Virus record (IMG/VR): IMGVR_UViG_3300034103_001442
Coordinates: 1-64,000 of that record
Direction: 5' to 3' (one strand)
DNA from: a virus
DNA length: 64,000 bases
In this document: piece after piece, positions 29,901 through 44,451 of the stretch
Numbering within the stretch: position 1 is the stretch's first letter
How the letters are laid out: each line of letters begins with the position of its first letter
The notes under the pieces: model-generated
The model's database searches: none
The model's input: only the letters and a program-made list of their open reading frames with translations
Told to the model about the DNA's origin: nothing
Program-made: the position numbers and the translations under genes

Positions 29901-32102
29901 ATTGGAATTTGTTGTATTAATTTGTGTCAGTTTGTTCCAAGTGTATGATAATATCACACCAGTACTGTTGGCAAATGAGACATAATAGTAGTCATCATTA
30001 ACCAAACCATTAACAACTGTATTTCCTGATGCTGCTTGGTATTTGACAATATCACCAGCAATAATTCTAGTGCTCACATCAGATGGCAAAGTGATAAACC
30101 CAGTTGTTGGATTTATTGCTGTGTTTGGATTAAATGCAATCTTATTGTATTCCTGGTAAACATAATCACCAACAGCAAAACCGCTAGCAGAGCCTACAGT
30201 GATTACGCTTCTGCTATAGTTCAAACTGCTTTGATTGTTTGCTGCAATAAGATCAGTACCGATAAATATGACTTCAGTTTCGCCAATTGTACCAACGTTA
30301 AATCCAGCACCTGATCCAAGACTTACGGATACAACATTTGCGTTTGTATTTGAATAAATGCCGAATGCGAGTGACTGTGGTGAGTTTACAAAGTCGCCAC
30401 CCTCAGTTTCAACTGAATAGGTTACAAGTGTTGCTTGGGCGTTATTCGATTGGGTGTAAATCTTTTGAGTATCTTCAAAATAACCACTCATCGGGATAAT
30501 TGAAAGGTTGCCAGTTCCCGCATCATATGATGAAGTGAGAACAAGTCCCTTGGCGGTTACTTTATTTGCATCATTATACTGATAAACGTATGGCGTAAAT
30601 GCGATATTTGCGTTGGTGGCTGAATTATATTTTAGCCTGTAAATGCTCTTGTTAATATTATACACACCAAGTGATGTATCAACATTGGTGACGGTGGCAT
30701 TAAATACAGCACTGTCTTCATTTTTGATTGTTGTTTTCTTAAACGCCCCGACAGCATTTGCGACGTAAATTGTATTTCCCGTAGCAATAGGGGAAACGTT
30801 TGAAACCTGACCCCTAGCAAAAATGCCAAGAGAGTTTGACTGATAAACGTGATCACCAACTTGTATATCACCAGTTTGACTTGTGATATTAATGGTATAG
30901 GTATTTGGAATACCCATAGCCTGAGAACTAATTGTTCTGTCTTCAACTGACTGGACTGAAATAGAAACAGCATTTCCAGTTGTATAATAAGTTCTTGAGT
31001 TTGCAAATGGACCAGTCAGCAGTGGTCTAATTGTAATATCGCCGCTTGCGCCAACTTGGTTTGAACTTAATACAACACCTGAAGATGACACTGTGTTGTT
31101 GGCGTGATAACTGTAAACAATATCACCAGCAACAACGTTTGAAGTGGCAGAAATGAAGTTTGCATTTACAAGAGGCTGAACAACTGTTTCAAAAAGTTTG
31201 AATGTTAAATTGCTGGTTGAGGTAGGAATGACATTTGAAAGGTTGAGCACCTTTTCTGATACAATAGCATTTGCGCTTAATGTATAACCCCATCCGCCAT
31301 CGACGAAAATAAAGTCCACAACACCAGTGGCTTCAGAAACTGCAGTAACTCTAGCAAGACCACCAGTTCCTCTGAGTGAACCGCTGAATGATACGATGTC
31401 GCCGACCTTGAAGTTTCTTCCCTTGTCTTGAATCAAAACTTGGTCAACAGAACCAATAAGACTTGCACGTTTTGCGGAGTCATAAGTTGGTGTGCCATTT
31501 ACACTGATACCGATTACTTCACCTTTTTGGAAGTTTCCTTGACGACCAGAAATGTAAAGCAGGTTTACATATCCGTAACCCGCTCTGCGGCGAATGTATC
31601 GTTCAACGAATGCTGTGGCTCCTGATAATGAGCCAATGATTTGTTTACCGACATAATCAACGTTGAACTTTGAGTAATTGATTTCAAGATACTCTGGACG
31701 CTCCCAAATACCATCCGAAACACGGAGGATTTTTTCACCAGGATATCCGACTTCAGCACTTGTACCATAAACAAGTTTGAAGAACAAGTCGATCGAACGT
31801 TCAGTTCCTTTTGAACGATAAAGTTCAAGTGAGTTTTTAATCAACAACTGTTTGTTGGTTGCCGTGTCAAACTGAATGTTTTTGAGATACTTTTCTTTGA
31901 AGTAAACAATAAACTCATCAAGTGTTGTATCAATATCACGGAGGTCAGTTAGTCTACGAGCATACCATAATGGGTTGTTCGTACTTTCAAGCCACTCATA
32001 ATATGCCTTGACAAACGCAATGAACTGGCTACCCTCCTCACGATAAAAAGAGGGAAACTGAGACTCAACAAATGGGGAGATTAATTTCTCAAACTGTTTC
32101 AT
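26922..32102 (-). CDS. gp7: Baseplate wedge initiator gp7-like, with inserted repeated beta domains
   Basis: SQFPSFYRE...FVKAYYEWLE...DIDTT...LYRSKGTERS...FKLVYG; C-terminal HDGDYYQEYSYEI...HTAGTKFFG; lies between gp6 and gp8. Confidence 0.8.
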   Translation of the reverse strand: MKQFEKLISPFVESQFPSFYREEGSQFIAFVKAYYEWLESTNNPLWYARRLTDLRDIDTTLDEFIVYFKEKYLKNIQFDTATNKQLLIKNSLELYRSKGTERSIDLFFKLVYGTSAEVGYPGEKILRVSDGIWERPEYLEINYSKFNVDYVGKQIIGSLSGATAFVERYIRRRAGYGYVNLLYISGRQGNFQKGEVIGISVNGTPTYDSAKRASLIGSVDQVLIQDKGRNFKVGDIVSFSGSLRGTGGLARVTAVSEATGVVDFIFVDGGWGYTLSANAIVSEKVLNLSNVIPTSTSNLTFKLFETVVQPLVNANFISATSNVVAGDIVYSYHANNTVSSSGVVLSSNQVGASGDITIRPLLTGPFANSRTYYTTGNAVSISVQSVEDRTISSQAMGIPNTYTINITSQTGDIQVGDHVYQSNSLGIFARGQVSNVSPIATGNTIYVANAVGAFKKTTIKNEDSAVFNATVTNVDTSLGVYNINKSIYRLKYNSATNANIAFTPYVYQYNDANKVTAKGLVLTSSYDAGTGNLSIIPMSGYFEDTQKIYTQSNNAQATLVTYSVETEGGDFVNSPQSLAFGIYSNTNANVVSVSLGSGAGFNVGTIGETEVIFIGTDLIAANNQSSLNYSRSVITVGSASGFAVGDYVYQEYNKIAFNPNTAINPTTGFITLPSDVSTRIIAGDIVKYQAASGNTVVNGLVNDDYYYVSFANSTGVILSYTWNKLTQINTTNSNFANNATVSEEGHYLYKVAYGTVYNISGTDISVKSVYNLFGTTAAGASVTTYGNSNLILYKTPSTNSAISAVGVAATITTANQAFYTLSPRAAAFGFPKNPQGDFKDTIYSCLSFGRFEIGTIGSLINVDPGADYNVDPYVLVYEKPIAGFGRHDYEMTVKDATSSFAVGEKVNQVQANLQFYDLKVDSGVYGNTYNEVTLGFNSKDEVEGTANAIYMPSNTVTFNISTDVDNDANTITIAGNPFAANDLVRYYTVDANTALGGLSNNTFYFVKNVTGNTITLSATAGGANVDLTSTNTANFHSNTNVSSAIDFISIASASTLFSNGDRVKYYTGTGNTALTGLTNNSIYYVVAANSTGLALSLTSGGANVDIVGLNPGGNGHYLKYYNDGYNGHVLRNYSNPYANDVQILYTTTTGNTAVTGLTNAAAYYVVGSNSVAIKLSSTLGGTALDLTAAATNEAGHYFATIAGFLPKDKVYQQITTTFNALSAVDSSANTITIADRPFANGDRVLYYTGAAGTVLTGLSNNSYYYVTGTSGNTLKLATTTGGTALDLTAGLSENHTLKSVANAFVNSVRTGTNKFVRVNGVENTLANGFNLQSYTNPYVNAVVSNVELVSIVSTAKGLVKPGSNTTTLFLERITFENTFQENIEITGDTSGAVANVVSVKQDYREYPIGLNADISANVITANGQIAGLSVVDSGVGYSNGEIVQVNSEDNLRSASIKVIIGGHGTGKGYYRSSKGFLSADMYIHDGDYYQEYSYEIFSKLSVDKYSDMFKKVMHTAGTKFFGSALVVEEDSAPVTISEIATGLEIEFDAADDVNSSTERIQVDIEKNYRNINPAQIDNSTDFITVFKNPFSNNDYIRYQVSAGNTAINGLTNGNYYYIVQANTLGVKLSSVANGSPLPIAPSVATEWGHKFTSYVNPIANGDQIIYRTQTAVTALTGLTNNQIYYAKNTNPISLQLATTSTGSPINITAKGSSEVGHYLIKIVEET

Positions 32103-33889
32103 TATTCGCGGACTTGTTGAACGTTAATTTCGACATCTGGTTCAAGAATATTTAGGATGGTATTTTTCGTTGATGTAATATCTTTGAATTTTGGTAGTGC
32201 GTAAATTTTTAGGTAACTCCCATTATATGAAGTGAGGTTGAATCCTCTCGCATCAAGTTGACCATTGGCATAGTCAATTGTACCAACGTCAACAAGTTTT
32301 TGGTGGCTGTCACCAAGCACTGTTGTAACTCTTATGACTCCATTACCGTCATCTTCTAAATTACATTGTTTACCATCAAATGTGAACAAACTTGAACCAA
32401 TTGCATGAACGTCATCAGCGTTGTGAGAGTCGCCAAGTTCAGGGATTGTGTCACTAATTGGAATGCCATAGTTTACAGCGATTCTTTGTGAAGTGTTCAA
32501 TGTTGGGGTCAAATACTTAACAAGTTTAATCTCAGTTTCGTTACTGATAATGCTTGGATCAGACTCATCGATCGTTTTGATAAACTTCGAATAACGTAGT
32601 GTTCTGTTGAAGTTGTTCAAGTTTGTTGAGGCAAAGTCCAAAATCTTCGAAAGCACAAGTGTTCGAATATCATCTGGGTTCAATGATGTAAGGTTAATAT
32701 TGTATTTGATATTTGTAACAATTGACAAATACAAGTATTCAGGTGCGATGAATATTGGCTCCATTGCTACGGTTGCGCGGCTGCGGAGAAAACGTTTGTA
32801 TTCCTCCTCCTTGACCTTTGGAAGACCATCAACATCCTTTAAGTCAATAGACAAAAAGATTCGACCAAATTGTGGCGGTGTTGCATCTTCGCCGCCATAT
32901 GCAGCAACTGTGTTAATTTCTGGAAAATTGATTTTTAGTAGGTTTTCATAGTCTTCAGCGGTAACTGCTCTTTCCTGAGTCGTAAACGCTCTTGGAGCGT
33001 TGTATTTGATTGACTCAAGAGTTTCGTAAACAGAACCTGCTGAAGCAGAAGAAACTGTTCTAACTGTGATGTTTGTTTCGCTGTCAATGGCTTGGGCTGC
33101 ACGAAACACTCTTGCGCCGTTCGGCAATTCACCATTTGATACACGGTACTCAATTACAACAACAGACTCATTCTTTGGTCTGCGTCCAACAATGCCATCA
33201 CCGAAAATAATCTCATATGTGTCGCCGATGTATGGCTGAATGAAGTAAACTTTTGAGAGTGATGTCAAGTCGAATAGCGAGGTTGCGCGTGTGTATGTTT
33301 GAAGCGTTGCACCATTGTCTTCAAGAATTGTAACCTTCAAACTCGCAAGGTCGACATTTTTGTTACTGATTGTATATTTTGTTGGCTTTGTGTAACTTAC
33401 TGGGTAGGTGTCAGTGACATAATCACCCTCATAAACAGTCAGTGTTGTTGTAAATGTGGTATTTGAACTTGTGACAGTTGATGTTTCTGCAGTTGTGAAC
33501 AGGTAAGTGTTTGAGCCAACGCGAGTGCTGAATGCCGTTCCTTTTGGAATTACAATGTTTCTTTTGTCTTGATCGGTAGTTACGATAGTCAGAGCCAGTG
33601 TAGCCTCTGATGACTTAAATGAACGTGGGAGATAGTTCAACTCCTTGGCGTGGCTAACAACACTGTCACGTAACTGAGCACTGTCAAGGAACATTTCGTT
33701 ACCGATCATGTTCATATAGAATGCGTTCTGATACGTGTTATATGCTAACACATCAAGAAGCACATTAATGTTTGATGATTCGTAATCGTAATCCTTGAAT
33801 GCTGATTGTTGTTTTAGAAACGCCTTCAACTCCCTTTTGTAGGAGTCAAAGTCTAAAGAGGTCAATGAGACGCTTGAATTCGCTGCCAT
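32102..33889 (-). CDS. gp6: Baseplate wedge subunit gp6
   Basis: LDFDSYK..LK.FL..Q..FKDYDYE.S...LLDVLAYNT...EMFLDSAQLRDSVVSHAKELNYLPRS; QERAVTAEDY; GGEDATPPQFG. Confidence 0.95.
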   Translation of the reverse strand: MAANSSVSLTSLDFDSYKRELKAFLKQQSAFKDYDYESSNINVLLDVLAYNTYQNAFYMNMIGNEMFLDSAQLRDSVVSHAKELNYLPRSFKSSEATLALTIVTTDQDKRNIVIPKGTAFSTRVGSNTYLFTTAETSTVTSSNTTFTTTLTVYEGDYVTDTYPVSYTKPTKYTISNKNVDLASLKVTILEDNGATLQTYTRATSLFDLTSLSKVYFIQPYIGDTYEIIFGDGIVGRRPKNESVVVIEYRVSNGELPNGARVFRAAQAIDSETNITVRTVSSASAGSVYETLESIKYNAPRAFTTQERAVTAEDYENLLKINFPEINTVAAYGGEDATPPQFGRIFLSIDLKDVDGLPKVKEEEYKRFLRSRATVAMEPIFIAPEYLYLSIVTNIKYNINLTSLNPDDIRTLVLSKILDFASTNLNNFNRTLRYSKFIKTIDESDPSIISNETEIKLVKYLTPTLNTSQRIAVNYGIPISDTIPELGDSHNADDVHAIGSSLFTFDGKQCNLEDDGNGVIRVTTVLGDSHQKLVDVGTIDYANGQLDARGFNLTSYNGSYLKIYALPKFKDITSTKNTILNILEPDVEINVQQVRE

Positions 33890-34311
33890 TATCGTACTCT
33901 ATCTAATTTGATTTGAAGTAATGCTGGATCAGGATTATTTATGACCCTGAAAATAATGTCGATATTATATGTTTGTTCATCGTTACTGAGTGAGATTCTG
34001 ATTTCATCTACAATGGCACGTGGTTCATATTTCTTCAACGTTTCAGAAATCGACACCTTCAAGTTTTCTTTTGTTACAGAGTCTGCTGGTTCAAAGAGAT
34101 ATTTCTTAATGTTTCCACCGAGGTCTGGGGCGAAAAATCTCTCACCTTTATCCGTTGACAATAGGTTTCTGATACTGCGCTTTACAGCCTCAACATTTGT
34201 TCTTTTCAACAACATGCCAGTGTTTGGATGTGCGTTGAGATTCGTCATGAAATCACTATAGATTTCCTTGTTACGCAGGTTTGATTGATCATCTACTCTT
34301 TGAATTGCCAT
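33889..34311 (-). CDS. gp25: Baseplate wedge subunit gp25
   Basis: YSDF...HP...AVKRSIRNLLST.KGERFF.P.LG...LFEP...YEPR. Confidence 0.93.
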   Translation of the reverse strand: MAIQRVDDQSNLRNKEIYSDFMTNLNAHPNTGMLLKRTNVEAVKRSIRNLLSTDKGERFFAPDLGGNIKKYLFEPADSVTKENLKVSISETLKKYEPRAIVDEIRISLSNDEQTYNIDIIFRVINNPDPALLQIKLDRVR

Positions 34312-34342: not shown

Positions 34343-35722
34343 TTAGGCACTGGGTCTGGTTGCAGTAATAACAACTTCTTCTAATTGTTCATCGCCAGGC
34401 AAATAGCCATACTTGGTAAATTTTAACTCAAAACATGCTTTAGGAAGCAGACCGTAAACAACATCTGCTAGGCTGAAAATTGGTTTCAAAATGATATTCA
34501 TCACAGTGCAAACATCAACCTTACCCCTGAAAATGTCAACAAGTTGTATGACAAAATCAAAAATCTTCAGTGCCTGTTTTACGATCGGAATTGTACTTGC
34601 CAATTCTTTCAGAGTTTTGAGAACTTTTTCAAATGCTTTCATAATGAGTTCGACAAAACTCAGTGCTGAGAGCCTTTTCAATTTGTTCATCAAACGATTC
34701 CAGCCATCTTTTATTCTGGCGATCACTTTCTCTTTCATGAATGTTTTGAATTTCTTTATCTCTTCCTCCATGTTAATGTCAAGCATTTCACCCACAGTGT
34801 TTGCACCGAGGAGTGAACTGAATGGTGGGGGAATCGGTATTGCCAAAATAGCATCGATGAATGCATTCATTATCTTACTGGCTTGTTTCTCAAGTTCTGC
34901 CCTAACTTCATCCGCATATTCGCCACTGAGAAGTTTTTTCCTAATTTCTTGGTATTCTTCCTTTGCCTTTTTGTAGAGTTTATCGAAAAACTCTCTCAGT
35001 GTTGTTGTTGGATCAGTGATTGAACCCAACTTGCTTATCAAAGATCCCAAAACAGGAACTTTTTTCAAAAAGTCTGTCATCGCAGTTACGATTTTGGTAA
35101 TTGAAATATCAAACTGCTCATTGATCCAGTCAACTAGTTTTTGCCACAACTCCTCCGCACTGTAGTCTGGCGCAACAATATTCCACTCACCTGTGAAAAA
35201 GTCTGTTACAGTTTCATCAATACTTTTGATGAACTTTTGAGCCTCTTTGGCATATTCAGCCATTGCCGCTTTGATTTTGGCTTTACCCTCTTTGGTGAAC
35301 ACATCGCCGAGTTTACAGTCTGGTAAAAACGGTATTGGTAAGTTTAGTGGGTTTGGTATTGCGAAACTGATAATTTCTACAATTTTGAATAAGATTTCAA
35401 GAAGAAGTTTTTGCAAATACACATCAATGTCTTTGAGAAACTCTCTAACCTTATACTCCATTTCATCCACACCGCATCTTATTTTTGTGAAAACATCGGT
35501 CATTAAGATGCCAGTGATTTCGTTAATCACTTTTTCGATTTCAGCAATAGAGTTTTCTAATTCTTTTGTGCAATCATTATCATTCAACATTGCAGCCTGA
35601 ACTCTCAATTGTGATGGAACACTACCGAGAGTTTTGAAATAGTTTTGCAATGTTTTTGTCATGTCTCCATTTTTGCACTCTATTTGCGGAGGCTCTGGGA
35701 GATATAAAACAAACTTGGACAT
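34343..35722 (-). CDS. Hypothetical alpha-helical protein between gp5 and gp25, C-terminal TonB-box-like motif
   Basis: 459-aa ORF coupled to gp5; amphipathic I/L/F/K/E-rich helices; ends in EQLEEVVITATRPSA. Confidence 0.75.
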   Translation of the reverse strand: MSKFVLYLPEPPQIECKNGDMTKTLQNYFKTLGSVPSQLRVQAAMLNDNDCTKELENSIAEIEKVINEITGILMTDVFTKIRCGVDEMEYKVREFLKDIDVYLQKLLLEILFKIVEIISFAIPNPLNLPIPFLPDCKLGDVFTKEGKAKIKAAMAEYAKEAQKFIKSIDETVTDFFTGEWNIVAPDYSAEELWQKLVDWINEQFDISITKIVTAMTDFLKKVPVLGSLISKLGSITDPTTTLREFFDKLYKKAKEEYQEIRKKLLSGEYADEVRAELEKQASKIMNAFIDAILAIPIPPPFSSLLGANTVGEMLDINMEEEIKKFKTFMKEKVIARIKDGWNRLMNKLKRLSALSFVELIMKAFEKVLKTLKELASTIPIVKQALKIFDFVIQLVDIFRGKVDVCTVMNIILKPIFSLADVVYGLLPKACFELKFTKYGYLPGDEQLEEVVITATRPSA

Positions 35723-35723
35723 T

Positions 35724-36413
35724 TTATGGATTGATTCCGACTATTGGAGCCTGAATGCTTATTGCTGTTGATGAAGTGATGCTGACTTTGTCTTTAGAGA
35801 CAATATTTACTTTTCCATTTATAACTTGAACTTGTAAGTCACCACTATTTACAAACATAAATTTGTCTTGTTCAGTGTATTCAGTGTTGTTTACATTTGA
35901 GATAATATTGATATCACCATTTTCATCCATCATAATATATGAGCCAGACTTGTGAGTTATGTTTAATCTTTCATATCCTGGCGTGTCATCAACTTCAATT
36001 GTATGACCACTTACAGTTTCGTAAACTTTATTAAATGGGTACTGGCTCGCGCTACCATTTTCACCCCTTGCGGCTGCGTTGACATCGTGATTTGCTGGAT
36101 TGCCATTAGGTTTTGGAATATGAAACGTTCCCATAACAACAGGAATGTTTTTCTCTTTACCATCCATGTAAAATCCAACCACGTGTGAACCAACTTCAAT
36201 TCCTGTTGGCGACCAACCTTTACCTCTATATGAAGATGAGGTTGGTGGCATCATAATGATAGCCCATGGGAGTTTGTCATCAGATATTTTATCAAAATGT
36301 TCATTGATGACCTTGATTTGAACCCTACCTGCTTTGTCTGGATCGTCGCTGTTGTTAACAACTTCGCCAACGAACCAAACAAATGTTCCCTCGCCGATAG
36401 TACTGAAACTCAT
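35724..36413 (-). CDS. gp5: Baseplate spike gp5 (OB-fold plus short beta-helix, no lysozyme domain)
   Basis: FVWFVGEV...DP...GRVQ...LPWA...GS.VVGFYMDG...PVVMG; YPFNKVYETVSGHTIEVDDTPGYERL...HKSG. Confidence 0.9.
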   Translation of the reverse strand: MSFSTIGEGTFVWFVGEVVNNSDDPDKAGRVQIKVINEHFDKISDDKLPWAIIMMPPTSSSYRGKGWSPTGIEVGSHVVGFYMDGKEKNIPVVMGTFHIPKPNGNPANHDVNAAARGENGSASQYPFNKVYETVSGHTIEVDDTPGYERLNITHKSGSYIMMDENGDINIISNVNNTEYTEQDKFMFVNSGDLQVQVINGKVNIVSKDKVSITSSTAISIQAPIVGINP

Positions 36414-36416
36414 AAT

Positions 36417-37658
36417 TTACTCCTTCAAAAATCCTGTTTTGAGCACTTCACATGCTTGAGTGTACATGGCTTGTCCAGTTGGTCTAATGATATGTCTAAT
36501 TTTTGTAATCAGATAATTACCTGATAACATTTTGTTTGTAGATTTTTCAGTCATACCGTCTGCATTTGGGAATTCGATATTGATAACTGAACCAGCAGTA
36601 AGTGCTGAGTCGCCCCAAATTTCTATGTTTAAAATGTTACTCATTAAACGAGAAAGATATGGGGTAATAAAATTTTCTTTCTTGACTCTTTCTAAATCTT
36701 TTTCATTTTTAATAGCAATGATTGTATTTGTTGCGTTTTTATCATCACCTTGATATTTTGCGGCAATGTCTTTTCTAACAGTGAAAGACTCTTGATCTAT
36801 GTTAAATTGACCATCGTCTTTAGTCTTTTCGAACTTGTAGGGTTCAGTTGTTCCTGTTTCTAAATTAAACGCCCAAACAACATTTTGCACGCCACCAATT
36901 GCGATTGTCTCCAAAAGGTTTTGATTTGAAATTTGTTTAGCAGCGAGTATGTTTCTCCAATCAGTGCTTTCGACACCAACTTTGCTTACAGTTTCAAATG
37001 TAAAATTTCTATCGCCATTGACTACAGTAGGATCTTTTTTACCTTCGGCGATTAAGTTTTCGATTGTGGAAAATGTATACCCGAAACGATTTTCAAAAAA
37101 GCAGTAAGATGAAGACTTGTTATTTCTTGATACAGACCTGCGTCTTATTTTATCAATAGCCTGAAATGGTTTTAGTTTAGTGACATTTACAGTATCCATG
37201 CCAAGTGTTTTTTCAAATACAAATTTTTTCTTTGTCTTCAACCCATTTTGTAATATGACTGAGATCATATCTTCTGGTTGTTTTTCTTTAAAAATTTCAG
37301 TAATGGTTTGCGCTGCACCCTCAAACAACTCTGGGCTAGACATCCGAACTGTATACGTTTTGTATGAACTACTTGACCCAACTTTTACATCAGTCACGGA
37401 GTCGATTTTGAATTTGAATAAAGAGTTTTCAACACCTTCATAAGTGCAATATTCTATATCTACATCACTACCAGCCAAATCAACTCTTTCTAGTAAACCA
37501 GCCCCATCATAAACGAACATATCAGCATGAATGCAAGGCGCAATCACACTTTCGTAAATATCAATTCTGGTTATAAAACCAACCAAGTCCACTTCGCCAT
37601 TTTTGTGTATCAGCTTGAATCGCTTGATATCAATATTACCAGGATTTAAAATATTCAT
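36417..37658 (-). CDS. Baseplate hub protein (gp27-like)
   Basis: IYES...FFENRFGY.F.TIE.L...GDSALTAG.VI.IEFP...SGNYLITKIRH; lies between gp53 and gp5. Confidence 0.75.
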   Translation of the reverse strand: MNILNPGNIDIKRFKLIHKNGEVDLVGFITRIDIYESVIAPCIHADMFVYDGAGLLERVDLAGSDVDIEYCTYEGVENSLFKFKIDSVTDVKVGSSSSYKTYTVRMSSPELFEGAAQTITEIFKEKQPEDMISVILQNGLKTKKKFVFEKTLGMDTVNVTKLKPFQAIDKIRRRSVSRNNKSSSYCFFENRFGYTFSTIENLIAEGKKDPTVVNGDRNFTFETVSKVGVESTDWRNILAAKQISNQNLLETIAIGGVQNVVWAFNLETGTTEPYKFEKTKDDGQFNIDQESFTVRKDIAAKYQGDDKNATNTIIAIKNEKDLERVKKENFITPYLSRLMSNILNIEIWGDSALTAGSVINIEFPNADGMTEKSTNKMLSGNYLITKIRHIIRPTGQAMYTQACEVLKTGFLKE

Positions 37659-38536
37659 TATGACCTCAAGAGTTCACTTAATTGCTCTTCCGCTTTTCCT
37701 TTTTGGCTGTTTCTGAGTAATATGATATCTCTTTTCTTTTGGTTTTCTTCAATTTCGTAATCATATGCACTAACTGGAGTCCAGTAAGAGACTTCATCAT
37801 TTGGGATATTCAAGACTGTTTGAGCAACACTGCTTACTGTATATTCGTATTGAGTGTTTTTGTATTTACTTACCAAAATGTTATTTGTAGTTGTTACAAA
37901 TTCTCCATCAAGGTTTTTAAAAGTCATTGTAGAAGTTTCGGCATTAAATGCCGCCAACTGCGCTTTTGCCACTGGAGTCGCATTGCCATCTTCATATTGT
38001 AAGTAAACATCATCAACTGCAGCAAAATCTACTGTATCAACTACAAGTGTGACCAACTTGTTTGTTGAGACTGTCCAATCAATCTTTTTACGAGAGTAAC
38101 CAGTGACGTTTCCGAAATAATCTATTTCAGATGTGTAGTATTTTCTTTTTGCTACTGATAGTTGATAATATTCTTTTTCACTTATTGAAGGTTGACTGAC
38201 CCAGTTGTTTCTGTAAAACAAAATGTAATCTCTAGCATAACTCAAAGAGGTATACTTCTCGATAATCTTTTTATTTAAAATTTCGTCTGATAATACAACA
38301 TCATAATATGGGTCGACAATTTCATTACTAAAATAATACAGCCAATCATAATATGGATTGTTGTAGTATTTTTCCGCAACCGTGTCAGCCCTCAGTACAG
38401 AAGACTCCAAACGGTGAGGAACAAAATTTACTGGATTGTTTTTTGTTTCTTCAGACAAACGAGCACGAGCCAAAATGTTTTTGACTGGACTGCCATTGTA
38501 AACGATAGTTGGAAATTTGTCGAAATATTTTGCCAT
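37658..38536 (-). CDS. gp53: Baseplate wedge subunit gp53
   Basis: MAKYFDKFPTI.Y...RADTVAEKYY....YDW....N.IVDP; C-terminal YDYE.EENQKKRDI.LL. Confidence 0.88.
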   Translation of the reverse strand: MAKYFDKFPTIVYNGSPVKNILARARLSEETKNNPVNFVPHRLESSVLRADTVAEKYYNNPYYDWLYYFSNEIVDPYYDVVLSDEILNKKIIEKYTSLSYARDYILFYRNNWVSQPSISEKEYYQLSVAKRKYYTSEIDYFGNVTGYSRKKIDWTVSTNKLVTLVVDTVDFAAVDDVYLQYEDGNATPVAKAQLAAFNAETSTMTFKNLDGEFVTTTNNILVSKYKNTQYEYTVSSVAQTVLNIPNDEVSYWTPVSAYDYEIEENQKKRDIILLRNSQKGKAEEQLSELLRS

Positions 38537-38537
38537 T

Positions 38538-40061
38538 TTATGTTACTGGTTTGTTTGTTACTTTAGCACTGTTGCCATTGTTGTTGTACATAAAGTTGAC
38601 CCCACCTTTATAATTGGTGTCCTCTTCAAGACCTAGAGTCAAGAGAAACGTCGATGCCGTGGTTATATTTCTAACGTCATGATCGCCAAAATCATTTGGC
38701 GGTTCACTTATATACCTACTACCATCACTTGTTACATATACAACTCTTGAACCGTCTTTATTGGTGTATTTTTTCGTAGTGCTTACAACTGTTCCGTTTT
38801 GCCCCTTTGTATCACTTGAGGCGACAGGCGTTGTATTGGCTCCTGTTCCACTGGTTGAAGAGTTTTCTACTTCAGCTGTTGCATTAGTCATAGCCACAAG
38901 GTCTTTAACTTCTTGTACAGCATTTTCGATTACGCCCACGGCTGAGGTGTTTGATTTTCTTCCATAATCGTCGGAGGTAAAGTATTCAATTTCTAATAAA
39001 GATACACTCAATAAAATAAATGATGGGGCTGGGTTTGTCCCACTGTTAAAAAAGGTTGGAGAGTCTGGCGCGTAATTTACTGAAACGTTTTCGATCATGC
39101 AGTGTTTGAAGGTGTACAAGTTACTTTTAGTGTTATTTTCTATATCATCATCACTTGACGCCCAAGGCATCAATTTAACCTTAATCATTTCTGGCATTTC
39201 TAATAGATTTACACTATCACTAATGAATGCTGGCAGTGCCGCTTGTTTTAATCTCAATAATAATTTACGTAGCGTTTCGCTTTCTTCTGCATTATTTGGG
39301 GCAAACAACCAATCAAAACGGTGTCTACGTAATGTTGGAGATTTAAACAATGCAGAAATGTGAGGGTTTGGTATTGCGCCAGCCATTTGCTGAGCCACTG
39401 CGAAAATTTGATTCGCCACAAATTCTTTTGCGGTATATGCTCCTGCGGTTACTAAAGCAGTTTTCGCAGCATCGGCTGCAGACTTACCCTGAAGGTCTTG
39501 AACAGTTGCTGGAGACGTAACGGCTCCAACAAGACCAAGTTCTAAACTAGAATCATATGATATTTCATGTCTATCTTCTAAAGTTCTAGGTAAAGGTAGG
39601 ATGATTACGTCTCTTACCTCCATTTCTGCTTTAGATTGAGGTGTTGGTCTTTTATATTTTTTGATTTCCAAACGCATATGGTAATCATTTAACGTTGATG
39701 GAAATCTCAAAACGTTAGAAGCATCGCCTTGGGTTTCTGTTTCTAACGTTCCTGGATCATCTGCATCCGCATCAATTAGACCACGATTTTGCTGAATTTC
39801 CTCTTTGGTTGCTCTGTTAATGTCTTTACCGAGAGCGCCGAAAAACTCTGCTGCTAGATCAGCGACGATTGCATCGCCGAGTTGGCTAACAATATTTTTA
39901 CCAGAACCTTGACCGAGACCAACCTTGGCCAAAGCATCAGAAAGGGCACCAGTCAATTTCTCTTCGGCTTTTGCTTGAAGTTTATCTGCCAAACTGTTGG
40001 CAAACTTTTTGATTGGATTTTTTTCTTTTTTGAAAAGATCTGATACGTTTAAGTCTGCCAT
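38538..40061 (-). CDS. gp48: Baseplate tail-tube cap gp48
   Basis: I.LPLP...NPH...LFKSP.LRRH.FDW.FAP.N.EES...C.IENVSVNYAP...L.VSLLEIE; divergent from gp4. Confidence 0.8.
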   Translation of the reverse strand: MADLNVSDLFKKEKNPIKKFANSLADKLQAKAEEKLTGALSDALAKVGLGQGSGKNIVSQLGDAIVADLAAEFFGALGKDINRATKEEIQQNRGLIDADADDPGTLETETQGDASNVLRFPSTLNDYHMRLEIKKYKRPTPQSKAEMEVRDVIILPLPRTLEDRHEISYDSSLELGLVGAVTSPATVQDLQGKSAADAAKTALVTAGAYTAKEFVANQIFAVAQQMAGAIPNPHISALFKSPTLRRHRFDWLFAPNNAEESETLRKLLLRLKQAALPAFISDSVNLLEMPEMIKVKLMPWASSDDDIENNTKSNLYTFKHCMIENVSVNYAPDSPTFFNSGTNPAPSFILLSVSLLEIEYFTSDDYGRKSNTSAVGVIENAVQEVKDLVAMTNATAEVENSSTSGTGANTTPVASSDTKGQNGTVVSTTKKYTNKDGSRVVYVTSDGSRYISEPPNDFGDHDVRNITTASTFLLTLGLEEDTNYKGGVNFMYNNNGNSAKVTNKPVT

Positions 40062-40552: not shown

Positions 40553-41132
40553 CAGAATCGTAATTCAGGGTGTTCGTGAGGGTAAAATCCCAGCACGCAC
40601 TCAAGATGCACGCAATTGGTTCCGTGACACGGCTCAGAAAATCAGAGCAGTGAATGAGCGCAGCCTGATGAAAAACGAAAAAGATCGTTTGGTCAGTCAG
40701 CCAATCGTCGGTAGCATGTACATGTTCTATTATGACCCAAAGTATGCTGCTGAACTGCCATACTATGACAGATTTCCTCTCGTTTTCCCATACAAAAAGG
40801 TTGAGGGTGGCTTTTATGGGCTCAACCTTCACTATTTACCACTGCAATACCGAGCAAAATTGATGGATGGTTTGTACAGTTTCGCAAACAACACTCGCTA
40901 TGATGAGTCAACAAAACTCAAAATGAGTTATCAACTGCTATCAAATGCAGCCAAACTTCGTTTTTTCGAACCTTGTTTGAAGAGATATTTGATTGACCAT
41001 GTGGGATCTAAATTCATGTATGTTTACCCATCAGAGTGGGATATTGCATTGTTTTTACCAACAGAAAGATTTGCCAAAAAGACCAAGTCACAAGTCTGGG
41101 CAGACTCTAAACGCATGCTGGGAGGCATATAA
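40536..41132 (+). CDS. gp2: DNA end protector protein gp2
   Basis: G.MYMFYYDPK...LPYYDRFPL...GLNLHYLP...C.KRYL..HV...LP.ERF. Probable start is TTG 40536 (LASIFD...) rather than 40422. Confidence 0.9.
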   Translation: MASIFDRIVIQGVREGKIPARTQDARNWFRDTAQKIRAVNERSLMKNEKDRLVSQPIVGSMYMFYYDPKYAAELPYYDRFPLVFPYKKVEGGFYGLNLHYLPLQYRAKLMDGLYSFANNTRYDESTKLKMSYQLLSNAAKLRFFEPCLKRYLIDHVGSKFMYVYPSEWDIALFLPTERFAKKTKSQVWADSKRMLGGI

Positions 41133-42112
41133 TGGCTGAGTCTTTAGAAGAAGCAATTGCAGTTGCCAACCAACAGGCTGGGTTAGATCAAAAAAATAAA
41201 AACACGCTTGGTGGTCCAACCAGTTATGCAGCCACAGAAACATTAAGAAATCGTCCTGCTGCAGAGCAATTAAATGCTGAACAAGAATTGGAAACTGTTA
41301 CTGTTGTTTCCCGCGCAAGACCATTTAACATTAATGAATTTAGATCAGAACTCAACACAAATGGAGTTTTGCGTAGCCACAGTTTTACAATGGTTATGCA
41401 ACCGCCAAAAATGTTTTCTGATAATGAACAATTTTTAACTGTTTTTGGTGATGAAACGTTTAGTGGTCCAATCCAAAATCCAGATTTAAGAAATCTAATA
41501 ATGCGTTGTGAATCTGTCGTTGTTCCTGGTGTAAACTTTTTTACATCTGACAATATTAGACGCTATGGTTATGGTCCAATTGAACGTCGCCCATATTTGC
41601 CACAGTTTAACCCAATCACCGCAACATTTGTTGTTGATAGGGCTGCTGAAGTAATTCGCTTTTTTCACCTGTGGAATAATGGTATCATGAACCATGACGT
41701 TTTTGTGGGGGGATTCAATGGCTCTCCAGACACTGTTTCAAAACCATACTTTTTGCGATATAAAGACGATTATATTAGCCCACAGTTGACGATTTTCGTA
41801 TATGATGAAAAATTTCAACAGTCATTTGTTGTTAAATTGAGAGACGCTTACCCATTGACAACAACAGATATTTCAATGTCGTGGGGTGCAACAGATGATG
41901 TTATTAGATACAGCGTAACATTTATGTACACTGATATGGCAATTGATTTCAAGTCGATAGGAACTGGTGGTGGTAAAATACTCGCATCTGCTGACAGTGG
42001 TCCAGATTTCAAAGCGGGCAAAGGTATTGTTGATAAGATTAAAAACCTTGTCAATGGAAAAATTTATTCAGCCCAAGAAAAGATTACAAATAAGATTTTA
42101 AATTCATTTTAA
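41132..42112 (+). CDS. Tail tube initiator / tube-like protein (gp54-like) with N-terminal extension
   Basis: FNINEFRS...G..R...F...RCESVVVPG...Y.DDY...L..AYP......MSW......SVTF.Y tube-fold motifs. Confidence 0.75.
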   Translation: MAESLEEAIAVANQQAGLDQKNKNTLGGPTSYAATETLRNRPAAEQLNAEQELETVTVVSRARPFNINEFRSELNTNGVLRSHSFTMVMQPPKMFSDNEQFLTVFGDETFSGPIQNPDLRNLIMRCESVVVPGVNFFTSDNIRRYGYGPIERRPYLPQFNPITATFVVDRAAEVIRFFHLWNNGIMNHDVFVGGFNGSPDTVSKPYFLRYKDDYISPQLTIFVYDEKFQQSFVVKLRDAYPLTTTDISMSWGATDDVIRYSVTFMYTDMAIDFKSIGTGGGKILASADSGPDFKAGKGIVDKIKNLVNGKIYSAQEKITNKILNSF

Positions 42113-42130: not shown

Positions 42131-42841
42131 ATGGCTTTACCGAAAATACAATCACCTACATTTGAAGTGATTATACCATCCATTAACAAAACTGTTTTGT
42201 TTAGACCATTTTTAGTCAAAGAAGAAAAAATTCTTTTAATGGCTCAACAAAGCAATGATGATAAAGATATTATCAAGGCTATCAAGCAAGTTGTCAACAA
42301 CTGTTGTTTAGATGATAAATTAGACATCGACAAACTGGCAACATTTGATCTTGAGTATTTGTTTCTGAAACTTCGAGCAAGATCAGTGAACAACGTTGTC
42401 GAAATTTTATACAAAGATGCAGAAGATGAAAAGGAATACAAATTTTCTATAAATTTGGATGATGTTGAAGTTACGATGCCGAAAAAATCTGAAAAAAATA
42501 TTAAGATCAATAAGAAGTCTGGCATCGTTATGAAATACCCGAACTTGAGCATCGTGGACCAAATTAAAGATTTTAAAGATGAAATGGAGTTTTTAAACTT
42601 CTTCATCATTAAATGTATCGATGAAATTTACGATGAAAATGATGTTTACCCTGCATCAGAACAAACAGATGAAGAGTTGCAAGAGTTCATTGACAATTTG
42701 GATGTGAAAACCTTTGACAAAATCAGAGAGTTTATGGAGAATATGCCAAAACTTGAACATGTTATAACTTATACTAACTCTTTAGGAAAAGAGAAAAAAG
42801 TAACGTTGAGTACACTAAATGATTTTTTTACATTGGGCTGA
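42131..42841 (+). CDS. gp26: Baseplate hub assembly chaperone gp26
   Basis: MALPKI..PTFE..IPS......FRPFLVKEEKILLMA...FDLEYLFLKLRARSV...MKYP...MPKL...DFF; ATG after a GAGGAG SD. Confidence 0.93.
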   Translation: MALPKIQSPTFEVIIPSINKTVLFRPFLVKEEKILLMAQQSNDDKDIIKAIKQVVNNCCLDDKLDIDKLATFDLEYLFLKLRARSVNNVVEILYKDAEDEKEYKFSINLDDVEVTMPKKSEKNIKINKKSGIVMKYPNLSIVDQIKDFKDEMEFLNFFIIKCIDEIYDENDVYPASEQTDEELQEFIDNLDVKTFDKIREFMENMPKLEHVITYTNSLGKEKKVTLSTLNDFFTLG

Positions 42842-43008
42842 GTCATACCAGTTTAGCAAATTATTATAACATAATTTTCTCATTGGCTCAGCATCATAAA
42901 TACTCGATAAGTGATATTGAAAATTTGATACCGTTTGAAAGAGACTTGTATGTACAAATGTTAATAGACTTTTTGGAAAAAGAAAAAGAAAAAAGAGAGC
43001 AAAAATAA
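42823..43008 (+). CDS. gp51: Baseplate hub assembly catalyst gp51, probably reached by -1 frameshift from gp26
   Basis: Not in the ORF track. Reads (FFYIG)LSHTSLANYYNIIFSLAQHHKYSISDIENLIPFERDLYVQMLIDFLEKEKEKREQK*, the gp51 signature. The frame opens after TGA 42820-42822 and has no ATG before the conserved region. Confidence 0.85.
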   Translation, partial: FFYIGLSHTSLANYYNIIFSLAQHHKYSISDIENLIPFERDLYVQMLIDFLEKEKEKREQK

Positions 43009-44451
43009 ATGCCATTACCACTAGCAGGAATATTAGGAACCCTCGGAAGAGGAGCAATGTTAGCGAGATCAGTAACGCCAATTGTTTCGGGATTATCACT
43101 CAGCAGATTTGGTATGGGTAGAGTTTTCCCATTTTTGAAAGACACTCTGAAAAAAGGGGCAGAACTGATAAAACGTGGCGGCAAAGGCGTGGCGAAAAGA
43201 ATTCCTACTGCTGCTGCATTATTTCTTGGTCTTAATAAATTTGGCTCCAAATTTGGTGAAGAGGGCGGGGAATTTTTACAACCAGAGCAAAATGGTGGTG
43301 CGCAAAATGGTGGTGCGTTTTCGGAACGTGGTGTACTTGGTGCTGGGGGTGGTGAAGCATTAGGTGCTGCATTACCAAGTTTAAGAAATGCAAACATTCC
43401 ATCGCTGCCAAGTTATAAAAGTGGTAAAGAAGGAGAAACTACAGCCAAACTTCTTTCAATTGCAATTAAATATCTTGCTGGAATTGATGCCACTTTAAAA
43501 AACCAACTTGACGTACAAAGAGCATCATTTACACAAACAAATCAAGCAACAAGAGAAAAAAGTTTAGAGGGTTCCGATATAGAGGGGGGCAGACCTACAT
43601 CATCAATAGTATCAAGGATGAAAAGTGCTGGTGGTGGTATTTTGTCTTTCTTTTCCAGTATGTTAATGAAAACATTACTTTTAACTGCACCATTGATTAT
43701 CAAAAAGATTTCCGACATGGTGGATGGGTTTGATTTTGGTTTTGGTGATGATGAAGAAACCGAACCAAGAGCAACACCTCAAAATGGAATGACAAATCAA
43801 AATGGAATGACAAACGATAGACCATCTACAGGCGTTTTGTCTGTCAGAAACAATAATCCTGGTAATTTGAGATTTGCTAATCAAAGAGGGGCAATAGGAA
43901 AAGACAAAAACGGTTTTGCTATATTCCCAACTCGAGAAGCTGGAATGGAGGCAATGAGGCGTCAAGTCGCAAAGGACACTCAAGAAAGAGGTTTGACATT
44001 AGAAAATTTCATTAAAAAATATGCCCCGCCAAGCGAAAATCCAACTTCTGAATATGTGAAAAACGTTTCAGAAAAAACTGGAATTGCTCCAAATGCAAAA
44101 GTTCCTTCTGATAAAATACCTGATGTTATGAGGGCGATGGTGCTTCAAGAGGGCGGTCAACAGGCAATTCAATATTTTTATAACAATCAAGCCCCTACTT
44201 CTGGACAAATGGTTGCTCAACAAACTTCAGGGTCAGCAGCAAAAATTTCAGAAGCAGCAGTTGATAGAGCCGCCAGAGAAAGCGGAGTGGCAACAACGCC
44301 AACAACACCTGCACCAGTTGTAGTCGCTCAAAACGCACCACCGCCAAGTTCAACGACGGTGACTTCTGGTGGTCCTGGCGACCCAAGCAGTGTAAGTTCT
44401 GATAGAACGTTGATGACTTGGATTCAATACTTTTCACCATTGCAAGCATAA
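43009..44451 (+). CDS. Putative tape measure / hub protein (gp29 position) with NNPGN lysozyme-like domain
   Basis: Follows gp26/gp51. Amphipathic N-terminus; SVRNNNPGNLR...GFAIFPT.E.G...FIKKYAPPSEN.T..Y muramidase-like motif; P/T/S-rich tail. Confidence 0.65.
   Translation: MPLPLAGILGTLGRGAMLARSVTPIVSGLSLSRFGMGRVFPFLKDTLKKGAELIKRGGKGVAKRIPTAAALFLGLNKFGSKFGEEGGEFLQPEQNGGAQNGGAFSERGVLGAGGGEALGAALPSLRNANIPSLPSYKSGKEGETTAKLLSIAIKYLAGIDATLKNQLDVQRASFTQTNQATREKSLEGSDIEGGRPTSSIVSRMKSAGGGILSFFSSMLMKTLLLTAPLIIKKISDMVDGFDFGFGDDEETEPRATPQNGMTNQNGMTNDRPSTGVLSVRNNNPGNLRFANQRGAIGKDKNGFAIFPTREAGMEAMRRQVAKDTQERGLTLENFIKKYAPPSENPTSEYVKNVSEKTGIAPNAKVPSDKIPDVMRAMVLQEGGQQAIQYFYNNQAPTSGQMVAQQTSGSAAKISEAAVDRAARESGVATTPTTPAPVVVAQNAPPPSSTTVTSGGPGDPSSVSSDRTLMTWIQYFSPLQA

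Follow-up and report, generated by a model that had tools for sequence, protein, structure and literature searches.

A protein of 459 amino acids, here termed protein X, occupies the slot between the gp5 spike and the gp25 sheath initiator of a T4-like myovirus and ends in a peptide that, judged from its sequence, is a true match to TonB boxes, beyond chance likeness. A box-like strand is also located in the N-terminal arm of the gp54-like tail-tube initiator of the same phage, and higher-scoring versions of this strand occur in diverged relatives. As the best reading of these observations, we propose, tentatively and a little short of even confidence, that the peptide may be a portable TonB-docking tag on tail parts that reach the periplasm.

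The window, a stretch of 64,000 nucleotides, opens a virus record of 151,740 bp (CheckV completeness 87%), covering its first 64 kb, and contains a T4-like myovirus baseplate region. Based on gp6, the nearest cultured relatives are phages of Caulobacter, Sinorhizobium, Stenotrophomonas, Methylophilales, and Pelagibacter, with 33–38% identity. The minus strand encodes the gp48-like tube cap (507 aa; 38538-40061; phrog_230, E 2e-31), gp53 (37658-38536), a gp27-like hub protein (413 aa; 36417-37658; phrog_350, E 4e-57), a short gp5 spike (229 aa; 35724-36413), protein X (34343-35722), the gp25 sheath initiator immediately downstream of X (140 aa; 33889-34311; PF04965 and phrog_261), and gp6 (32102-33889); a gp7-like giant protein belongs to the same baseplate block and strand. 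The plus strand carries gp4, gp2, and gp26, as well as the gp54-like tail-tube initiator (326 aa; 41132-42112; phrog_45, E 4e-24) and a 480-aa protein in the gp26/gp29 slot (43009-44451; phrog_2276 and phrog_873). An open frame of ~60 codons without a start codon (42823-43005, plus strand) lies between gp26 and the 480-aa gene and stops just upstream of the ATG at 43009.

The sequence-only reading of this region had described gp5 as short and devoid of a lysozyme domain, with no PAAR tip gene following it, and both descriptions hold. The 229-aa gp5 matches only the OB and beta-helix parts of the gp5 profiles, the searches with these profiles gave no match to the lysozyme part, and PF05488 (PAAR) has no match at E up to 1 in the 151.7-kb genome, itself 87% complete. 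Additionally, the window encodes a circularly permuted phage tmRNA (48546-48856, minus strand; tag ANDSNYDMALAA). In Rfam, it matches the betaproteobacterial two-piece model RF01850 best (121 bits), with a further match to tmRNA_permuted RF04321; this betaproteobacterial type may be taken as a hint to the host. Beyond the window, at genome positions 107168-110808 on the minus strand (L005:5168-8808), two adjacent genes encode proteins of 748 and 464 aa with clear signal peptides and no Pfam match, and these may be envelope proteins produced in the infected cell.

The gene for X is tightly coupled to gp5, as had been noted before, with a single base between the gp5 stop codon and the X start codon (TAAaATG). 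The open reading frame and the structural model likewise bear out the earlier description of X as a helical protein of 459 aa with six cysteines, which are found at positions 16, 51, 83, 136, 405, and 430. The AlphaFold2 model, built on a 32-sequence alignment (mean pLDDT 72, pTM 0.63), is all-helical save for one N-terminal and one C-terminal strand. The helices are moderately hydrophobic (Kyte-Doolittle means over 19 residues peak at 1.73). X has more than 180 relatives, every one of them metagenomic; in this family, four cysteines are nearly invariant and many proline, glycine, and cysteine residues are conserved; a tblastn search of 50,697 phage records gave no match, and a metagenome scan yielded five short loci. 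Across about 80 IMG/VR loci, the genes keep the order gp27-gp5-X-gp25-gp6.

Searches for relatives of X outside this family provided no identity. There is no Pfam match, hence no recognised Plug, barrel, or PAAR domain, and X belongs to no PHROG family: only weak tape-measure matches were obtained in PHROGs (E 1.5e-3 to 3e-3), and nine diverse members of the family gave no match or equally weak ones. Structural comparisons returned generic helical bundles only, whether PDB and BFVD were searched with Foldseek (E at least 0.1) or 48,161 chains with VIA-align (Z below 8). The alpha-pore-forming-toxin entries among these results were weak and non-significant and were set aside, and the ESM Atlas scores of 0.80 or lower were uninformative. 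A phmmer search of PDB sequences with the 26-residue tails of X found nothing, such queries being too short. Two candidate identities were rejected. X is not taken as a PAAR or gp5.4 spike tip, as neither X nor the genome has a PAAR-repeat match, nor as a TonB-dependent transporter, as it has no Plug or barrel and a Plug is not found anywhere in the genome.

One syntenic locus, L015, whose gp6 is 63% identical, is informative about the role of X. In L015, X is missing and gp5 abuts gp25, with the order gp27-gp5-gp25-gp6 retained, which argues that X is accessory rather than a tape measure. Collectively, these results indicate that X is an accessory protein of the spike-tip slot (gp5-X-gp25) in certain uncultured T4-like myoviruses, and it is probably carried in the virion.

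The X protein ends in ...GDEQ-LEEVVITATR-PSA, in which the TonB-box peptide LEEVVITATR (residues 447–456; 34355-34384, minus strand) was delimited by motif, profile, and AlphaFold2 evidence. Residues 443–459 (34346-34396) are predicted to be disordered, with pLDDT values of 28–40 and no secondary structure. The tail had been described as unlike the rest of the protein; as a caveat to this wording, a variable tail is common to all members of the family. The tail fits the TonB-box core [DE]-[ET]-[ILVM]-[VIT]-V-[TS]-[AG]. A scan for [DE]EVV[IVM]TATR in 185,579 species genomes returned 80 loci, 79 of which could be aligned, and a Pfam Plug domain directly follows the peptide in 74 of these 79 in-frame occurrences. 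Most of the Plug-linked occurrences, which come from Proteobacteria, Bacteroidota, and other phyla, are preceded by a signal-peptide-like sequence. The exact nonapeptide is thus nearly diagnostic of TonB-dependent receptors, and betaproteobacterial receptors bear the same box as the X tail.

A profile of TonB boxes gave the same picture. The profile has 10 columns and was built from the pre-Plug strands of all 29 Plug-domain proteins in two betaproteobacterial genomes; a small circularity arises because the loci of two of the 29 had initially been located with the pattern. Among the 46,027 windows of the phage proteome, the X tail ranks first with 24.3 bits, above the median leave-one-out score of genuine boxes, and the earlier description of the motif as TonB-box-like is thus borne out. 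The second-best window, with 20.9 bits, lies at residue 134 of a 219-aa protein encoded in the replication-gene block (genome 119334-119993, minus strand); it is internal and is taken as a chance match. The loose motif occurs twice in the six frames of the whole genome, in the X tail and in the gp54-like arm, against 0.55 expected from the shuffled proteome; this count is weak and not significant alone. Furthermore, neither a signal peptide nor a Plug remnant is present beside the X box, and searches of the phage genome for TonB_C (PF03544), TonB_2 (PF13103), and Plug domains gave no match. A TonB-like domain of the phage itself was therefore rejected as the partner of the box.

Within the X family, the box is restricted to the clade of the window. 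It is present in all copies of X at 79–100% identity and in the clade outgroup at 70%, and the box-bearing tail is identical in two X proteins that are just 71.5% identical overall. Codon comparison of the box revealed two synonymous changes, which fall on conserved box residues, and three replacements that stay within the repertoire of receptors. In contrast, a relative at 75% identity has lost the box through an in-frame deletion with the gene retained, and the box is missing from all distant members. Conservation among homologues, proposed earlier as a check, is therefore found within the clade, down to 70% identity, but not in the 75% relative or the distant family. All X proteins share a conserved end, ...TKYG(Y/L)xP, followed by a variable tail, and other clades have different conserved tails, such as P-x-W-A-x-P. 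Since the distant members and one close homologue have no box, it is an add-on of one clade rather than the purpose of the X family, and for the same reason it is not essential. The codon and identity patterns indicate that the box is under selection in the clade of the window, yet an add-on.

Other clades of X differ at the C-terminus in further ways. In an abundant distant clade (L029-L097; L097:9992-11311, L044:9992-11323), the tail motif of X is P-[QK]-W-A-[KQ]-P, and a small beta-rich ORF of about 150–190 aa lies between X and gp25. Some longer X proteins (P0005-P0007, P0134) exceed the others by about 100 residues through a C-terminal extension that resembles this small ORF, which thus appears to be fused to X in these proteins.

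The second carrier of the motif is the gp54-like tail-tube initiator. Its match to PF23849 (21.9 bits) is under the cut-off of 27; the gene order gp2-gp54-gp26 is retained in relatives, and the homologue in HTVC008M carries a tube-initiator annotation. The N-terminal arm of this protein comprises 64 residues, of which residues 16–59 are predicted with pLDDT below 50. The box-like strand LETVTVVSRA (residues 53–62; 41288-41317, plus strand) lies directly upstream of the conserved FNINEFR, the start of the tube fold, and its score on the TonB-box profile is weak (10.2 bits). The homologues of Cr30, phiM12, DLP6, RHph_I1_18, and GD1 start at the fold and have no arm, and the arm of HTVC008M is unrelated; the arm is thus dispensable for assembly elsewhere, as these cultured relatives do without it.

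The arms of 18 diverged gp54-like homologues cannot be aligned except for the box-like strand, which sits 10–21 residues N-terminal of the tube fold. The motif is found in 5–7 of these 18 lineages against 0.02–0.08 expected, a level reached by none of 2000 shuffles, a control in which independence is overstated as the lineages are related. Moreover, four arms of diverged relatives score 21–27 bits, like genuine boxes. L015 has no X, yet the gp54-like N-arm encoded there has an E-V-I-V-T-A strand. In a six-frame ORF set of 577,775 aa, drawn from about 95 related loci, the strict 7-mer is limited to X, gp54-like proteins, and one junk ORF, and DNA comparison found no recent duplication between the motif regions of X and the gp54-like protein.

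P0191 and the abundant distant clade have a similar box-like strand in a C-terminal extension of the gp54-like protein instead. The strands of the abundant clade have a lysine at a core position and may be structural, because the surrounding extension is conserved as a whole. The gp54-like proteins of this clade (L097:16600-17976 and L089:8668-10317, both minus strand) have long N-terminal extensions with a P-K-x-V-[IV]-[DE]-E-R-L-R-G-E-G block and C-terminal extensions of about 100 aa that contain the strand D-[EQ]-[IF]-[IK]-V-T-[AGD].

That receptors and group B colicins pair with TonB through their Ton boxes is established, and a docking tag is favoured here because a disordered, receptor-type Ton box in the periplasm would be expected to pair with TonB as well. 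Once the sheath has contracted, the spike complex would enter the periplasm together with the distal rings of the tube. There, the exposed tag could add a beta-strand to the C-terminal domain of the host's TonB, in the manner of receptor and group B colicin boxes. The tail tip, or a released protein, would then be tethered to the TonB-ExbBD complex, which resides in the inner membrane and is driven by the proton-motive force, and the tip components might be guided or pulled towards the inner membrane or unplugged for DNA entry. What the analysis shows is the match in sequence, how specific it is, its predicted disorder, its conservation in the clade, and its recurrence on two families of tip genes; we infer the virion location, the periplasmic exposure, the TonB binding, and the energy coupling of the tag, and the earlier interpretation is in this sense partly supported. 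Gene position and the comparison with T4 together suggest that the X box would be exposed in the periplasm: the T4 hub consists of gp5-gp27-gp48-gp54, its spike complex is released, and gp48 makes up the tube's distal end after contraction (10.64898/2026.03.06.709160). By analogy, X, if spike-associated, and the rings at the end of the tube would reach the periplasm. Several observations fit a docking tag: two proteins that are unrelated carry it, and it can occupy either terminus; this arm is missing from cultured relatives; the phage has no TonB-like or Plug domain of its own; and the tmRNA is of a betaproteobacterial type, the same group having receptors with the same box.

A structural role is a serious alternative to docking on TonB, chiefly for the gp54-like extensions. 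The strand might dock X and the gp54-like ring onto a partner from the phage itself, be it inner baseplate, sheath, or tube, before contraction, in which case the likeness to TonB boxes would be convergent. In T4, terminal loops have such functions: in gp48 the N-terminal loop acts as an anchor in the baseplate, and in the tape measure the C-terminal loop attaches to the distal tube (10.64898/2026.03.06.709160). The position of the box-like strands, which adjoin the tube fold at either terminus, and the conservation of the entire C-terminal extension in the abundant clade also agree with an anchor. However, cultured relatives whose baseplates are similar have no arm, and among the lineages that do bear arms the motif is patchily distributed. 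In addition, the recurrence of one tag on a pair of unrelated proteins, and at one terminus or the other, suits a free partner better than a fixed docking geometry, the match reaches into the flanking TA-x-R of receptors, and receptors are otherwise nearly the only proteins with the nonapeptide. On balance, we regard an anchor or assembly strand as the main rival, less likely than docking on TonB but far from negligible. A different role directed at the host would draw on the same sequence evidence as TonB docking: the tag might bind a periplasmic partner and transiently block TonB-dependent uptake or superinfection, or it might pair with another partner by beta-augmentation. The different conserved tails of other X clades (P-x-W-A-x-P) suggest that the X tail accommodates short binding motifs in general, which would suit such a role. 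In contrast, the few copies in a tail tip would be unlikely to titrate the TonB of a cell, and none of the searches indicated an alternative partner, so that we give little credence to this possibility.

The peptide might also be a neutral passenger, that is, a captured fragment of a receptor gene or a chance tail without function. Its confinement to one shallow clade of X, its single loss from a gene that was kept, and the non-significant genome-wide motif count would all be expected of a passenger. Yet the tail has remained identical between X proteins that have diverged considerably, with synonymous changes at conserved residues, separate high-scoring boxes are found on the gp54-like arms of diverged phages, and the box is flanked by neither a signal peptide nor a Plug remnant; a passenger is accordingly judged improbable. 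Finally, X itself could be the tail tape measure, an analogue of T4 gp29, with its tail as the tube-binding C-terminal loop. The weak PHROG matches, the helical character, and the suitable length of X point in this direction. Against it stand the absence of X from L015, which retains gp27-gp5-gp25-gp6, the pTM of the model, the richness of the family in conserved proline, glycine, and cysteine, and a better candidate in the gp26/gp29 slot, which together make this identity highly improbable. The candidate in question is the 480-aa protein: its N-terminal part is rich in Gly and Ala, and it further comprises a hydrophobic segment, a central block that is conserved, and a wall-hydrolase domain of the transglycosylase-like type. 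It has no TonB box and is likelier than X to be the tape measure or an ejected wall hydrolase. Its relatives in L009, L013, L014, and L016 range from 480 to about 607 aa in length. An ejected hydrolase of this kind may make up for the missing lysozyme of gp5. The 83.8-kb L015 contig (L015:8993-18813) has no gene of this type after gp26; there, gp26 is followed by a 324-bp gap and then gp48.

How contractile tails cross the periplasm and engage the inner membrane is still poorly understood. T4-type phages have long been observed to require an energised membrane for DNA injection, and the reason is likewise poorly understood. If the proposed docking on TonB is true, it would provide a molecular handle on this requirement, and a genuine TonB box on tail-tip proteins would name a specific host partner. 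It would also widen parasitism of the Ton system from bacteriocins to phage virions and predict a route of resistance through TonB or ExbBD, at a fitness cost to the host. Moreover, the tag may mark host range in uncultured phages, namely hosts with a Ton system. More guardedly still, and further from even confidence, contractile-tailed phages of Gram-negative hosts might dock to TonB by a tag that is mobile among tip proteins (the X tail or either end of the tube initiator), coupling the approach to the inner membrane or the unplugging to the proton-motive force. Full-text literature searches on TonB boxes in connection with tape measures, myoviruses, or phage tails yielded papers on T5-FhuA and on bacteriocins only, and a broader search of the baseplate and tail-tube literature found nothing on Ton boxes in phage proteins.

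Compared with known systems, X resembles T4 gp5.4, the PAAR protein, in lying directly after gp5. It differs in being a helical protein of 459 aa without a PAAR match, and its attachment to the spike is putative. Similarly, the N-terminal loop of T4 gp48 and the C-terminal loop of the tape measure are terminal loops in the same region of the machine (10.64898/2026.03.06.709160), whereas their partners are phage proteins, and the comparison is one of position and not of Ton-box sequence. With TonB-dependent transporters such as BtuB, FhuA, and the betaproteobacterial receptors, X shares the core, the flanking T-A-x-R, and a flexible segment, and the score of its tail is inside the range of genuine boxes. 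In contrast to these transporters, X has no signal peptide, Plug, or barrel, its tag is C-terminal, and its gene belongs to a phage structural operon.

Other phages exploit the energy-coupled systems of the inner membrane by different means. The g3p of filamentous phages binds TolA, and infection by T1 and phi80 is TonB-dependent through FhuA. As proposed for X, these phages use a periplasm-spanning, energy-coupled system of the inner membrane; however, g3p relies on a folded domain and the Tol system, and the TonB dependence of T1 and phi80 is through the receptor. To our knowledge, there is no report of a Ton box on T1 or phi80 virions. Group B colicins are foreign proteins that exploit the Ton system of the host by means of a Ton box in a disordered end. 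X resembles group B colicins, colicin M, and related bacteriocins in carrying such a box in a disordered end (the TonB box of colicin M is mentioned in PMC5358913). In colicins, the box is needed for receptor-mediated crossing of the outer membrane, whereas X has no receptor-binding or toxin domain. The sequence-only reading had gone further in calling X a colicin-like entry module, which is overstated, as only the short tag is common to X and the colicins. Because a contractile tail pierces the outer membrane mechanically, any role of the Ton box in X would come after penetration.
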